64,000 bases of DNA from Bacteroidota bacterium (GTDB lineage: Bacteria > Bacteroidota > Bacteroidia > Flavobacteriales_F > PHOS-HE28), in contig JAFDZF010000180.1 in assembly GCA_018267055.1 (NCBI GenBank), positions 2,457-66,456 on the forward strand, read 5' to 3'. Positions 6,101-9,535 of the stretch are shown piece after piece; position 1 is the stretch's first letter; each line of letters begins with the position of its first letter. The notes below the pieces were generated by a model. The model did no database searches. It was not told where the DNA came from and worked only from the letters and a program-made list of their open reading frames with translations. The translations under genes and the position numbers were made by a program.

Positions 6101-9100
6101 ATCGGTATCCGGCAGCGGAGCATGCACGCACATGGCGCCATCGAAGCTGTCCGCCGTGCAGGGATCACCGTCGTTGCAGTCCACCGTACTGCCTATGCAC
6201 TGGCAGTTCGCGTTCAGCACATCGTTGATCGTCATCGCGTCCCCGTCGTCGCACGCCGAGCCGATCTGGCCCGGCACGTTGGGGCAGTTGTCCACCGCAT
6301 CGCAGATCCCGTCTCCGTCCGTGTCCGGCGAAGGTGTTCCCACACACTGGCAGTTCACGTTCAGCACATCATTGATCGTGCAGGCATTGCCGTCGTTGCA
6401 GGAGGAACCGATCTGACCCGCCACGTTCGGGCAGTTGTCCTGTGCATTGCAGACCCCATCACCGTCCGTGTCCGGCGAAGGCGTGCCCACGCACTGGCAG
6501 TTCGCGTTCAGTACGTCATTGATCGTGCACGCGTTCCCGTCGTTGCAGGAGGAACCGATCTGGCCTGCCACGTTCGGGCAACTGTCCTGCGCGTTGCAGA
6601 CCCCGTCACCGTCCGTATCCGGACTGATCGTCCCCACGCACTGGCAGCTCGCATTCAGCACGTCGTTGATCGTGCAGGGGTTCCCGTCATTGCACGACGA
6701 CCCGATCTGGCCCGCCACGTTCGGGCAACTGTCCTGCGCATCACAGACCCCATCGCCGTCCGTGTCCGCAACGGGCGTGCCCACACACTGGCAGCTCGCG
6801 TTCAGCACGTCGTTGATCGTGCAGGCATTGCCGTCGTTGCACGACGACCCGATCTGGCCCGCCACGTTCGGGCAGCTGTCCTGCGCATCGCAGACCCCAT
6901 CGCCATCCGTGTCCGGGCTCACCGTCCCTACGCACTGGCAGCTCGCGTTCAGCACGTCATTGATCGTACACGCATTGCCATCGTTGCACGACGAGCCGAT
7001 CTGACCCGCCACGTTCGGACAGCTGTCCTGGGCATCACAGATCCCATCGCCGTCCGTGTCCGGGCTCACCGTCCCCACGCACTGGCAGCTGGCGTTCAGC
7101 ACGTCATTGATCGTGCACGCATTGCCGTCGTTGCAGGAAGAACCGATCTGGCCCGCCACGTTCGGGCAGTTGTCCTGCGCATTGCAGATCCCGTCACCGT
7201 CCGTATCCGGACCGGGCGTGCCCACGCATTGGCAGTTCGCGTTCAGCACGTCGTTGATCGTGCAGGCATTGCCGTCGTTGCACGGCGACCCGATCTGGCC
7301 CGCCACGTTCGGGCAGTTGTCCTGCGCATTGCAGATCCCATCACCGTCCGTGTCCGGACCGGGCGTGCCCACGCATTGGCAGCTCGCGTTCAGCACGTCA
7401 TTGATCGTGCATGGGTTCCCATCGTTGCACGACGACCCGATCTGGCCCGCCACGTTCGGACAGTTGTCCTGGGCATCGCACACGCCGTCGCCATCGCTGT
7501 CCGGACCGGGCGTACCCACGCATTGGCAGCTCGCGTTCAGCACGTCGTTGATCGTGCAGGCGTTCCCATCGTTGCACGGCGATCCGACCTGCCCCGCCAC
7601 GTTCGGGCAGTTGTCCTGCGCATTGCACACGCCGTCGCCGTCCGTGTCCGGGGAAAGCGTCCCCACGCACTGGCAGCTGGCGTTGTAGATATCGTTCGTG
7701 GTGCAGGCATTGCCATCGTTGCAGGCGCTGCCGACCACTGCGCTCCCACCGACCACGCCCAGGCAGTCGGGCGTGGAAGAGCCGCTGGCCGTGGCGCGTG
7801 CGCCGAGCGAGAGGTTCTCGTAGCTGCCGCTCGCGGTGGTCTCCATCTTCATGGCGCGCACCATGTACTGCTTGCCAGCCACGAAAGGGACCGCGGGGTT
7901 GTTGTAGGACGCCCCGTTGACCAGTTGCGGCGAGATGCGGACGACGTCCCCGGAGGTGCCGTCGACCTCGTACACGTAATAGCCCTGGACGGTGCTCGGC
8001 GAAGCGTTCCAGCTGAAGCTCGCCGTCCCCGCGTTGTTCGTCACCTGCAGGCCCGTCGGCGGGGCCACCATCACCATGCGCAAGGTGGGATCGCCCATGA
8101 GGCCGAGGTGCACCCGGCCGTAAGTGGAACCCTGCCAGCCGCTGCTCTGGGGCGTGTACACCGAGCCGTTGTTCATGCTCTGCAGCGCGCTGTACCCGAT
8201 GTTGTCGCCGAGGCCCATGTTGTGGAACCACCAGTTCGGGATGGCCGCCCACACGCTGGTGAGGCCGTTCCCGCTGGCCAGCGGGGCGCGGAGGAAATTG
8301 TTCTTGTTGTCCCAATCGCCGAAGTAGCTGCCGAAGCTCATGTTGAACACGCCGCCCATGCTCACGGTGGAGGCATAGTCCTGCGTGGTGGCGATGTTGT
8401 TGGCCCCGTTGAAGGTGAGCACCCCATCGGTGGTGGCCTGCAGCCCGCCCCCGCTGCTGTAGCTCCAGAGGTAGCTCTGGCCGTTGACGAACGTGCTGAA
8501 CGCCGGACCGTAGGGATAGCAGTCGGTGATGTTGGCGCTGCCCACCAGGCCCGCGATGCTCCGGTACGCGCAGCCCGCCAGCGGATTGCCCACCCACTGC
8601 AGGTTGTCGAAGATGATCCCACGCGCCTGCGGCGTGAAGCCCTTGACCTTGAAGTTGTGCGCCTTGGCGAGGTAGTTGCGGACGAGCTGCACCTCGCTCT
8701 GCCCGAAGGCCGGCATGTCGTAGAGGTCCACCCGGCCCACCTGCAGCTCCAGGGCGGAGGGGTAATCGGTCTGGTCGAACTTGCCGTCACCGGGCACGTT
8801 GCGGTTCTCCGCCCGCTGGCTGCCGCTGTTGTTGACGCTGTTGTCGGTCCAGGTGCCGTTCATCTCCCCGTAGTAGCCATCGCAGGGCCATGCCCCCAGG
8901 TGCTCGTTGTGGCCGTCGGGGTTGAGGTTGCCGGAGTACGGCACGGGGATGTGGCCGAGGAGGTAGACCGCCTTCACGCGGGTGGGATCGGCGTTGTAGT
9001 CCGCCTGGATGATCGCCCGCACGCTCGACACGGAAGCGCTGCGCGATACCGTATGCCGGAGCACGTTCCAGCCATCGGCGCGCAGGTCGTTCTCCAGGTC

Positions 9101-9535
9101 GTTGATCTCGGTGGTGAGCTGGGGGGCGAGCACGTCGTCGATCAGGAGCACGAGCTTGCCCATCGATTCCGTCGGCGGCACGGTGATGCCCGCCGCGACA
9201 TAGCCCACGCCGCTCCCCGAGGACGCGGCACGGACCAGCTTGTATTCATAGTAGGCGCCCGCGGTGACCGCGTTGTCCACGTACTGCACATCCGCCGCCG
9301 CAGGCGTGGCGATGGCCGAGCCCCAGGAGGTGGCCGCCTTCAGCTTGCGGTACAGGGTGAGGCTCGACGTGCCGGAAAGGGCGGTCCAGGACAGCGTGAT
9401 GCGGGTCGGGCTGCTCTGCACCGTGGCGGAGAGCTGGACCGCATTGATGACCGAGGGGGACTGGGCGCCCACCAGCGCCGTGAGGGAAAGAGCAAGAACA
9501 AGGAGGAGCGAACGACGGAACATAGGAACAGGCAT
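3125..9535 (-). CDS. giant T9SS cargo protein (2136 aa): signal peptide, FN3, gingipain-like peptidase C25 homology domain (catalytic residues apparently substituted), about 25 tandem 48-aa TSP3-like Ca-binding/Cys repeats, TSP3 repeats, type-A T9SS C-terminal sorting domain
   Basis: Signal peptide MPVPMFRRSLLLVLALSLTALVGAQ. The segment KLVLLIDDVL...GWNVLRHTV...VKAVYLLGHIPVPYSG aligns by eye to the RgpB catalytic-domain N-terminal region (RMIVIVAKKYEGDIKDFVDWKNQRGLRTEV...LTYVLLVGDHKDIPA). The repeat [49 protein letters not shown] carries the DxDxDGxxDxxD thrombospondin type-3 calcium-binding signature. The C-terminus LSIFPNPAHDHVLVQW...GTYVVLALDDQGGVLARTRLVKE is a TIGR04183-like sorting domain. 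Confidence 0.85.
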   Translation of the reverse strand: MPVPMFRRSLLLVLALSLTALVGAQSPSVINAVQLSATVQSSPTRITLSWTALSGTSSLTLYRKLKAATSWGSAIATPAAADVQYVDNAVTAGAYYEYKLVRAASSGSGVGYVAAGITVPPTESMGKLVLLIDDVLAPQLTTEINDLENDLRADGWNVLRHTVSRSASVSSVRAIIQADYNADPTRVKAVYLLGHIPVPYSGNLNPDGHNEHLGAWPCDGYYGEMNGTWTDNSVNNSGSQRAENRNVPGDGKFDQTDYPSALELQVGRVDLYDMPAFGQSEVQLVRNYLAKAHNFKVKGFTPQARGIIFDNLQWVGNPLAGCAYRSIAGLVGSANITDCYPYGPAFSTFVNGQSYLWSYSSGGGLQATTDGVLTFNGANNIATTQDYASTVSMGGVFNMSFGSYFGDWDNKNNFLRAPLASGNGLTSVWAAIPNWWFHNMGLGDNIGYSALQSMNNGSVYTPQSSGWQGSTYGRVHLGLMGDPTLRMVMVAPPTGLQVTNNAGTASFSWNASPSTVQGYYVYEVDGTSGDVVRISPQLVNGASYNNPAVPFVAGKQYMVRAMKMETTASGSYENLSLGARATASGSSTPDCLGVVGGSAVVGSACNDGNACTTNDIYNASCQCVGTLSPDTDGDGVCNAQDNCPNVAGQVGSPCNDGNACTINDVLNASCQCVGTPGPDSDGDGVCDAQDNCPNVAGQIGSSCNDGNPCTINDVLNASCQCVGTPGPDTDGDGICNAQDNCPNVAGQIGSPCNDGNACTINDVLNANCQCVGTPGPDTDGDGICNAQDNCPNVAGQIGSSCNDGNACTINDVLNASCQCVGTVSPDTDGDGICDAQDSCPNVAGQIGSSCNDGNACTINDVLNASCQCVGTVSPDTDGDGVCDAQDSCPNVAGQIGSSCNDGNACTINDVLNASCQCVGTPVADTDGDGVCDAQDSCPNVAGQIGSSCNDGNPCTINDVLNASCQCVGTISPDTDGDGVCNAQDSCPNVAGQIGSSCNDGNACTINDVLNANCQCVGTPSPDTDGDGVCNAQDNCPNVAGQIGSSCNDGNACTINDVLNVNCQCVGTPSPDTDGDGICDAVDNCPNVPGQIGSACDDGDAMTINDVLNANCQCIGSTVDCNDGDPCTADSFDGAMCVHAPLPDTDADGTCDLVDGCPNDPGKIAPGTCGCGNPEPGTSCNDGDPCTINDVLNANCQCAGTPSPDTDGDGICNAQDNCPNVAGQIGSSCNDGNACTINDVLSANGQCVGTPSPDTDGDGVCNAQDNCPNVAGQIGSSCNDGNACTINDVLNANCQCVGTPSPDTDGDGICNAQDNCPNVAGQIGSPCNDGNACTINDVLNANCQCVGTPSPDTDGDGICNAQDNCPNVAGQIGSSCNDGNACTINDVLNANCQCVGTPSPDTDGDGICNAQDNCPNVAGQIGSPCNDGNACTINDVLNANCQCVGTVSPDTDGDGVCDAQDSCPNVAGQIGSPCNDGNACTINDVLNANCQCVGTPSPDTDGDGICDAQDSGPNVAGQIGLPCNDGNACTINDVLNANCQCVGTISPDTDGDGICNAQDNCPNVAGQIGSPCNDGNACTINDMLNANCQCVGTISPDTDGDGICNAQDNCPNVAGQIGSPCNDGNACTINDVLNANCQCAGTVQDTDGDGTCNAQDGCPNDPNKIAPGQCGCGTPDVDSDGDSTADCNDDCPNAQGQIGSPCNDGNPATVNDILNANCQCVGSTVDCNDQNECTTDLYNGATCVHTPLPDADGDGTCDQADGCPNDPHKLEPGSCGCGQAEPGAGCNDGDPNTTEDVVNANCQCVGTPMPLDCLGTPNGAALPGTPCNDNNANTGNDTWTAGCECVGLVIDCQGIPGGGALVGTPCNDGNAGTGNDTWTSDCACAGQLIDCEGVPGGDALVGTPCNEAGDLWTSDCGCVGSTPVLDCMGTPNGIALPGTTCDDGNDQTVMDVWGLNCLCTGILLDCAGVPGGTAAPDDCGTCAGGTTGVEPNADVDGDDLLSCEDNCNTAYNPGQADFDGDGVGDACDNCVWLMNPDQADANGNGIGDLCELWTGMAEPVSGQGLSIFPNPAHDHVLVQWSDTHARRLRFYDLSGKVVEEGTLMLRYDISGLATGTYVVLALDDQGGVLARTRLVKE
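4130..7790 (-). repeat. tandem array of about 25 near-identical 144-bp coding repeats (48-aa units) inside the 2136-aa T9SS cargo gene
   Basis: The signature cactggcagttcgcgttcagcacgtc(a/g)ttgatcgtgca recurs about every 144 bp (for example at ~4381, 4625, 4771, 4915, 5065, 5208, 5353, 5500, 5650...7670). Boundaries are approximate. Variant and longer units occur at ~4130-4380 and ~5960-6200. Confidence 0.8.

Follow-up and report, generated by a model that had tools for sequence, protein, structure and literature searches.

Two giant type IX secretion cargo proteins of a Bacteroidota bacterium carry gingipain-like (C25) domains with Ser and Gly predicted at the catalytic Cys and His positions

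Two adjacent genes in a 64,000-nucleotide stretch of contig JAFDZF010000180.1 (the window; GenBank assembly GCA_018267055.1, a Bacteroidota bacterium of the PHOS-HE28 lineage), whose positions serve as coordinates throughout, encode giant type IX secretion system (T9SS) cargo proteins, referred to here as proteins 1 and 2. Near the N terminus of each lies a core domain (~375 amino acids) that is very probably homologous to the C25 peptidases, and in both paralogs, on the evidence of profile alignment and predicted structures, the catalytic Cys is Ser and the catalytic His is Gly. A reading made from the DNA letters alone (the sequence-only reading) had flagged this domain at 8000-9200, which is inside the protein 1 open reading frame (residues ~112-512), and its counterpart at 13400-14500 (residues ~134-500 of protein 2). 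With slightly better than even confidence, we favor the interpretation that the domain is a pseudo-peptidase whose old cleft would be a ligand-binding site, and that it forms the head at the far end of a calcium-binding stalk anchored by way of the T9SS. The genes and their gingipain-like regions are located as follows.

3125-9535, minus strand: gene for protein 1, 2136 amino acids, from translation.
8636-9184, minus strand: N-terminal subdomain of the protein 1 C25-like core, residues 118-300, strands b1-b4, from hhalign and shared motifs.
8060-8635, minus strand: C-terminal caspase-like subdomain of the protein 1 core, residues 301-492, strands b5-b10, with the relic active-site cleft, from model secondary structure, Foldseek, and hhalign.
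9755-14899, minus strand: gene for protein 2, 1714 amino acids from the ATG at 14899.
13475-14545, minus strand: C25-like core of protein 2, residues ~119-475, from AlphaFold and Foldseek.

The relationship to gingipains was apparent in the predicted structures. AlphaFold2 models were built for residues 1-520 of protein 1 (model 1, using 37 family sequences) and for the core plus the immunoglobulin (Ig)-like domain of protein 2 (model 2). The predicted local distance difference test score (pLDDT) and predicted template-modeling score (pTM) were 87.7 and 0.88 for model 1 and 89.1 and 0.90 for model 2, the latter containing the full Ig-like sandwich. Both models exhibited the C25 fold, a sheet of ten strands with helices between them followed by a beta-sandwich, corresponding to the ten-stranded sheet (4+6 strands) and Ig superfamily (IgSF) domain of RgpB (PMC4357240). 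Foldseek identified RgpB as the best structural match of both models among Protein Data Bank (PDB) entries, consistent with the C25-like domain that the sequence-only reading had proposed for the two proteins. For model 1 the top two entries were 1cvr (E = 1.7e-9) and 4ief_D (E = 1.3e-8), aligned over ~440 columns; for model 2 the top entry was 1cvr (E = 3.2e-12, template-modeling (TM) scores of 0.54/0.58), and 4ief gave TM scores of 0.55/0.60. After RgpB, the best non-FN3 matches of either model had TM scores below 0.2.

Ordinary sequence searches with the window proteins gave no such signal. A Pfam scan, which the sequence-only reading had put forward as a check, detected no Peptidase_C25 (PF01364) match in the N-terminal regions of either protein even at E ≤ 1, and the ~375-residue core had no Pfam or NCBIfam match. 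Searches of PDB sequences by phmmer and with the family profile returned only FN3 domains and noise, with no C25 chain. Peptidase_C25 was matched below threshold in 17 of 37 relatives (best E = 9.2e-5). When the family was compared by hhalign with a C25 reference alignment (RgpB and 17 C25 relatives), we obtained E = 0.0042 with 37 family sequences and Prob 71% (P = 3.7e-5) with 255. The significant part was the N-terminal subdomain, which alone was aligned under default settings and in which KLVLLIDD, VYLLGH-IPVP, and CDGYYG pair with RMIVIVAKKY, VLLVGDHKDIP, and SDQVYG of RgpB; a further motif in this region, ELQVGR, is shared with C25 as EVFIGR. Where C25 has its invariant D93, G111, and R112, the family has D219, G267, and R268, each conserved at 97% or above. 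At a lower posterior threshold of the maximum-accuracy (MAC) algorithm, the alignment was colinear from end to end, with six shared motifs at C25-invariant residues. The extended pairs (protein 1/RgpB) comprised Y359.G362.G364/Y208.G210.G212, F397/F238, G406/G247, W408/F249, and R416/R262, along with G481-D482-P483 paired with the GDP of RgpB FGDPS. For the C-terminal subdomain by itself, hhalign scored 21.5; shuffling the columns 100 times gave 13.5 ± 2.2, and every shuffled score stayed below the real one. Alignments in the -glob mode were meaningless and were set aside, and a hidden Markov model made from C25 sequences matched only the b1-b3 region of family members, without significantly covering the catalytic region. 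The window proteins lie below C25 sequence detection, and the homology is visible only by structure and by profile-profile comparison. The peptide strings on which the sequence-only reading had built its alignment by eye are all present in proteins 1 and 2 (in protein 1, KLVLLIDDVL, DLRADGWNVLRHTV, VKAVYLLGHIPVP, LWSYSSGGGLQATTDG, and FNMSFGSYFGDW), and its RgpB strings match the 1CVR sequence.

In clan CD peptidases the catalytic His and Cys are found where strands Hb3 and Hb4 (b7 and b8 in RgpB) reach their C-terminal ends; the RgpB numbering used here (His211 and Cys244) agrees with the deposited 1CVR sequence. We derived the equivalences below from profile alignment, from motifs held in common, and from the topology of the strands.

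8444-8452, minus strand: Gly362-Gly363-Gly364 of protein 1, at the C-terminal end of b7, equivalent to RgpB Gly210-His211-Gly212; codons GGG GGC GGG; extended hhalign alignment.
8327-8329, minus strand: Ser403 of protein 1, in FGSYFGDW, equivalent to RgpB Cys244 (VACVNGDF); codon AGC; hhalign.
13820-13828, minus strand: Gly358-Gly359-Gly360 of protein 2, in YGCGGG, the His211-equivalent site; family alignment and codons.
13733-13735, minus strand: Ser389 of protein 2, in FGSYFGDF, the Cys244 equivalent; codon AGC; family alignment.

In model 1, b7 comprises residues 355-361 (SYLWSYS) followed by G362-G363-G364, and b8 comprises residues 395-401 (GVFNMSF) followed by G402-S403. Ser403 therefore lies two residues past b8 and six residues after F397, just as C244 lies six after F238. 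The His-equivalent and Cys-equivalent positions lie 40 residues apart in protein 1, 30 in protein 2, and 33 in RgpB (the sequence-only reading had put the spacing at 31-41 against 33 and called it compatible), and the difference between the paralogs is a 10-residue beta-hairpin found in protein 1 only. One subdomain-only hhalign alignment had placed His211 at the hairpin strand VLTFNGAN; since protein 2 lacks the hairpin and its sole strand between the flanking helices is YLWSYGC, we assign b7 to the SYLWSY strand. Residues 340-395 of protein 1 contain no His. Around RgpB Asp163, the S1 residue, the hhalign alignment is gapped and of low confidence; the RgpB loop Gln282-Trp284, which provides the lid residue Trp284, is matched in the alignment by an aromatic-rich loop, PNWWFH. 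The suggestion that the GDF after the nucleophile position is conserved was right for the Gly and the aromatic residue, which are retained family-wide; the match is otherwise partly coincidental, as most close C25 relatives read GNF.

We investigated the conservation of these positions in an alignment of 255 domain copies (protein 1 numbering). Seven residues, Ser403, His209, Asp219, Asp231, Arg268, Gly481, and Asp482, are present in all 255. Asp407 (254/255) and Gly364 (253/255) are near-invariant, with Asp310 retained in 240 (94%) and His438 in 222. Position 363, the equivalent of His211, is Gly in 179 copies, Ala in 27, Pro in 19, Thr in 19, and Ser in 8, and is never His, whereas position 362 is Gly in 227, Ser in 17, and Ala in 10. 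Between columns 340 and 415, His occurs in at most 26 of the 255 copies at any position. The domain has no conserved thiol, the top Cys columns being position 361 (126/255) and position 218 (95/255). The Gly and Ser reported for the two paralogs thus stand and extend to the family as a whole, and an intact His and Cys, the observation that would have contradicted them, was not found at the catalytic positions. Because the dyad is absent across all 255 copies, its loss would be ancestral to the whole family and not a decay peculiar to the two window genes. Since the site offers neither a thiol nor a His, cysteine-peptidase chemistry is excluded for these domains, as judged from their residues.

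Codon usage offered a view of how the Ser may have arisen. AGY, which is one transversion away from the Cys codons TGY, encodes Ser403 in 91 of 100 genomic copies, and TCN encodes it in the remaining 9, which are distributed over several lineages and both loop-length subtypes. At the variable position 361, TGY and AGY codons (45 and 34 copies) interchange freely. These patterns agree with descent of Ser403 from a Cys codon and lasting selection to keep Ser thereafter. The control residue S201 also uses both codon classes, so a codon switch alone is no proof of catalysis. Position 361 lies two residues before the His-equivalent Gly and alternates among Cys, Ser, Ala, and Gly. The Cys found there in 126 copies, including protein 2 (Cys357 in YGCGGG, 13829-13831) and not protein 1, has no co-varying Cys partner in the alignment and is likely to be an unpaired thiol close to the relic cleft. 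Co-occurring Cys columns, examined for disulfides that would bring the N-terminal loops close to the relic cleft, yielded no strong pair (best r = 0.51, for positions 330/449).

Our preferred interpretation, a pseudo-peptidase acting as a binding head, regards the domain as a strongly diverged C25 homolog that keeps the four-stranded subdomain, the six-stranded caspase-like subdomain, and the Ig-like domain, with the backbone scaffold of the relic cleft predicted to be intact (Gly362/Gly364, Gly402-Ser403, and Gly406). In RgpB, the backbone holds the P1 residue and the oxyanion by way of Gly210, Gly212, and the nucleophile position (PMC4357240). The family retains the equivalents of both Gly residues together with a fixed residue where the nucleophile stood, and conserved aromatic, Asp, and Asn residues abound in the loops that follow b8 (GSYFGDWDNxNNF) and b9 (IPNWxFHxM); from these features we infer that the cleft may still bind a ligand, either a peptide or perhaps a glycan. 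If it behaves like other type A cargo, the exported protein would be attached through its C terminus, and the stalk would hold the head off the cell. Three considerations favor a non-proteolytic role. The C25 peptidases retrieved with RgpB carry Propeptide_C25 (PF08126), and the present family has an FN3 domain in its place and therefore no latency device; this FN3 domain also overturns the description of the C25-like domain as the first globular domain of the proteins. The modules that co-occur with the domain (FN3, Ig, cadherin-like, Calx-beta, PKD, TSP3, dockerin, and beta-helix) are all non-catalytic. Finally, presumed inactive variants in clan CD are recurrently marked by a Cys to Ser change and a lost His; YS and HS dyads account for 8.6% of bacterial orthocaspases as pseudo-variants of this clan (PMC6426788).

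Several observations weigh against the pseudo-peptidase interpretation. The conservation of Ser403, Gly364, Asp407, Asp310, and the b8 and b9 loops exceeds what would be expected of a decayed site, and a catalytic Ser fits it equally well. Ser403 has been kept through AGY/TCN switches in several lineages, although the S201 control shows the same mix. A secreted enzyme could equally well have this architecture, in which one globular domain is combined with Ig-like modules and a sorting signal. In addition, the b7 register was ambiguous in the subdomain-only alignment mentioned above, though no register supplies a His.

These points lead to the alternative that the domain is an active enzyme in which Ser403 is the nucleophile in the old gingipain cleft, with a peptide, ester, or glycosidic substrate, and we regard it as rather unlikely. 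The oxyanion hole would be provided by Gly364 and the NH of Ser403, and the base would have been relocated, for example to His438 in the loop after b9, Asp310, Asp407, or Asp409, or be furnished by the substrate. This proposal draws on the counts given above for Ser403, Gly364, Asp407, Asp310, and His438, on the retention of Ser in both codon classes, on the high conservation of the cleft loops GSYFGDWDN and IPNWxFHxM, and on the position of the C25-like domain as the sole non-Ig globular domain in most family proteins. We know of no serine-dependent clan CD enzyme, and it is unlikely in our estimation that these domains are the first caspase/gingipain-fold enzyme to use a serine nucleophile, with a relocated base in a retained oxyanion-hole scaffold. 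If this were true, it would reveal a previously unrecognized class of secreted hydrolases or transpeptidases in thousands of uncultured Bacteroidota and other bacteria, and interest in the family would be high only if Ser403 proved catalytic. The proposal is weakened by the lack of an invariant His near the site in the sequence. In place of the nearest conserved one, His438, 31 of 255 copies have Gln or Tyr, and the invariant His209 belongs to the N-terminal subdomain, in which the strand ends point toward the other edge of the sheet (the RgpB sheet runs 6-5-7-8-9-10 up and 4-3-1-2 down; PMC4357240). Moreover, Cys to Ser changes in clan CD usually mark pseudo-variants (PMC6426788), and a protease of this kind would have no propeptide to restrain it.

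A different shift of function, to the N-terminal His/Asp-rich loops, would make the old cleft merely structural and assign Ca2+- or Zn2+-dependent binding or catalysis to His195, Ser201, Asp207, His209, His212, Asp219, Asp231, Asn246, Asp250, Asp254, Arg268, and Asp270; we consider this quite unlikely. More than half of the residues conserved at 97% or above do fall in 194-270, including the invariant His209, Asp219, Asp231, and Arg268, two motifs, DGHxEH and GDGKFDQ, look like metal-binding loops, and RgpB has a Ca2+ site with Asp103 and Glu107 in the equivalent region (PMC4357240). The same positions, however, are invariant in genuine C25 peptidases (S92, D93, D103, G111, and R112), so their conservation looks inherited and structural or Ca2+-related instead of indicating a new active site. 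The confidence of the protein 1 model is also lowest here (pLDDT 58-70), and Pfam and NCBIfam scans detected no known metal-enzyme motif. It is highly improbable that the gingipain likeness reflects only a generic alpha/beta-sandwich or an alignment artifact, in which case the substitutions would be meaningless. Such an explanation would accommodate the failure of either window protein to match Pfam Peptidase_C25 or a PDB C25 chain by sequence, hhalign probabilities that ranged from 8 to 71%, and a Foldseek root mean square deviation of ~7 Å. Opposed to it are the top rank of RgpB for two independent models, at least five orders of magnitude ahead of the next non-FN3 match; TM scores reaching 0.58-0.60 over more than 500 columns that include the trailing Ig domain; the six colinear motifs at C25-invariant residues; the specificity of the weak Pfam matches for Peptidase_C25 in 17 of 37 members; and the shuffle control (0/100).

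Comparison with known systems places the domains closest to the Porphyromonas gingivalis gingipains RgpB and Kgp (MEROPS C25, clan CD; 1CVR and 4IEF). The window proteins resemble RgpB in their two-subdomain, ten-stranded sheet followed by an Ig-like domain and in a series of motifs: GD/GH after b3, D..YG, E..(V/I)GR, Y.G.G at b7, F.....(A/G)(C/S)..G.(F/W) at b8, (L/M)RA, and GDP(S/T)L. As in gingipains, secretion is by the T9SS via a C-terminal sorting domain. They differ from RgpB in the replacement of Cys244 by Ser and of His211 by Gly, in a ~45-residue His/Asp-rich insertion between b3 and b4, and in a sequence identity of 11-15%, with the Pfam C25 threshold not reached; in the gapped region around the S1 residue Asp163, no counterpart could be aligned. 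Unlike gingipains, they lack the propeptide that FN3 replaces and are proteins of 1700-2100 amino acids with a TSP3 stalk and no haemagglutinin/adhesin domains. The T9SS sortase PorU (6ZA2), which is related to RgpB by sequence, likewise has a C25-fold domain and is a T9SS-related Bacteroidota surface protein; it retains a catalytic Cys and acts as a transpeptidase (PMC8545088). In contrast to the large cargo family described here, PorU belongs to the secretion machinery itself and is present as one copy. PorU was not among the top 50 Foldseek matches of either model. The pseudo-orthocaspases and pseudo-metacaspases of family C14 (for example, TbMC1 and TbMC4 of Trypanosoma brucei) belong to the same clan CD and share the Cys to Ser change, the replacement of His, and the retention of fold and pocket, and they are presumed to be non-proteolytic yet functional (PMC6426788). 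They differ in possessing a p20 domain without the N-terminal subdomain, in exchanging His for Tyr and not Gly, and in being cytoplasmic rather than T9SS-secreted. The N-terminal caspase-like domain of Raptor, a eukaryotic, intracellular part of mTORC1, is a further case of the clan CD fold used as a non-catalytic scaffold or binding module, with Ser reported at the nucleophile position. We found no description of C25 pseudo-peptidases or of the present family in the literature.

The domains define a very large, previously unannotated C25-fold family without the Cys-His dyad and with an invariant Ser at the nucleophile position. They would extend clan CD pseudo-enzyme evolution from the caspase-like C14 family to C25, offer a clean test case for whether a protease cleft was reused for binding or converted to serine chemistry, and point to the part of giant T9SS surface proteins that is probably their functional head. 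A search with the core by phmmer against 1.84 billion cluster representatives returned at least 2673 clusters (50% identity) at E ≤ 1e-3, with 1624 at E ≤ 1e-30; a word-indexed search gave at least 4282 proteins, and a scan of species-representative genomes gave at least 593 loci. Members bear generic database names ("hypothetical", "FN3", or "TSP3 repeat" protein) and no family annotation. The clusters derive almost entirely from metagenome-assembled genomes (MAGs), with uncultured Flavobacteriales and other environmental bacteria as the sources of nearly all members, as do all 80 of the at least 593 loci that were kept and to which the locus-level counts refer. These 80 are mostly from Flavobacteriales, with some from Verrucomicrobiota, Thermoanaerobaculia, and Lujinxingiaceae, and the protein search added Sandaracinaceae and Bradymonadaceae as carriers. 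Judged by isolate names, the carrier lineages appear to be common in wastewater and freshwater communities. The T9SS is not expected in Lujinxingiaceae, Sandaracinaceae, Bradymonadaceae, Verrucomicrobiota, or Thermoanaerobaculia. The members outside Bacteroidota include loci L044, L075, L076, and L080 and proteins P0082 and P0085; the latter, the two such proteins with Pfam data, have no Por_Secre_tail on record. The occurrence of members outside T9SS groups, together with the missing Por_Secre_tail, suggests that the family spread horizontally with exchange of the sorting signal. One member of 3383 amino acids (P0148) contains four tandem C25-like domains, indicating that the domain behaves as a repeatable module.

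The remaining parts of protein 1 follow the order signal peptide, FN3 domain, C25-like core, Ig/FN3-like domain, TSP3/Cys-rich stalk, and T9SS type A C-terminal sorting domain.

9185-9448, minus strand: FN3 domain, residues ~30-117, from a profile match to 3mpc and a beta-sandwich in the model.
7796-8059, minus strand: Ig/FN3-like domain after the core, residues 493-580, placed as is the RgpB IgSF domain, from the model and Pfam.
3341-7795, minus strand: repeat stalk of ~1500 amino acids, from Tandem Repeats Finder (TRF) and Pfam TSP_3.
3128-3340, minus strand: T9SS type A C-terminal sorting domain, from TIGR04183 and PF18962.

The family profile matched the Fn3-like protein 3mpc in the PDB (E = 4e-6, profile positions 30-101), and the AlphaFold model has a beta-sandwich at residues 36-116. 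Strands of the Ig/FN3-like domain begin at residue 494 in the model, and a weak Pfam fn3 match covers residues 492-524. The stalk contains two arrays of ~10 copies each of a 147-bp (49-residue) Cys/Asp-rich unit of the TSP3 type, with further Cys-rich units. TRF reported 9.7 copies with 88% matches at 4563-5983 and 10.4 copies with 86% matches at 6197-7723, and Pfam TSP_3 matched 13 stretches (E = 9.3e-68). Repeats of 147 bp at 86-88% identity are easily collapsed or expanded during assembly, which leaves their real copy number uncertain. Two stalk units have lost a conserved Cys (SGPNVAG for SCPNVAG and SANGQCVG for NANCQCVG).

A hydrophobic, signal-like N terminus is visible in the translations of both proteins. 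TIGR04183 scored 28.3 bits for protein 1 and 26.9 bits for protein 2, above the cut-off of 23 in both cases, and the label of giant T9SS cargo is therefore correct; PF18962 (Por_Secre_tail) scored 28.9 bits for protein 1, above its cut-off of 27, and 18 bits for protein 2, below it. Both proteins combine the sorting domain with a signal peptide, as type A cargo does. Public relatives are up to 72% identical, and on this ground we take both genes to be real.

The protein 2 gene lies directly upstream of the protein 1 gene on the same strand. Its reading frame is open over 9755-15073, with the signal-peptide-like start at the ATG at 14899. The N-terminal ~600 residues of the two proteins are 49% identical. 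Protein 2 shares the N-terminal layout of protein 1 but continues into a different Cys-rich stalk before its T9SS C-terminal sorting domain. Within this stalk a domain of ~190 amino acids occurs twice (~11800-12500 and ~10900-11500, minus strand); the copies are similar by eye, contain ARLCISY and ARLCIAY, respectively, and have no Pfam match at E ≤ 0.01.

Divergent from the protein 2 gene is a hybrid synthetase gene (15270-21758, plus strand, 2162 amino acids) encoding AMP-binding/fatty acyl-AMP ligase (FAAL), acyl carrier protein (ACP), ketosynthase, acyltransferase, ACP, and class III aminotransferase domains, followed by a nonribosomal peptide synthetase (NRPS) module of condensation-adenylation-thiolation-thioesterase order (21692-25729, plus strand). 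The polyketide synthase (PKS) neighbor stands beside the C25-like gene in the same divergent order in ~21 of the 80 related loci, and there it is 75-84% identical, far above the C25-like gene itself. This conserved PKS/NRPS neighbor may point to a functional link or may represent lineage synteny only. The open reading frame at 26269-29379 (plus strand, 1036 amino acids) matches a Cons_hypoth95/RsmD-like methyltransferase in its last ~180 residues only and is probably an over-extension of the kind typical of DNA with 68-70% GC. On the other side, convergent to the protein 1 gene, is a third T9SS cargo gene (22-3114, plus strand) whose product of 1030 amino acids carries a type B sorting domain (CHU_C/TIGR04131) as well as a PKD domain; among the 80 related loci, 11 have a homolog of it on the corresponding side of the C25-like gene.

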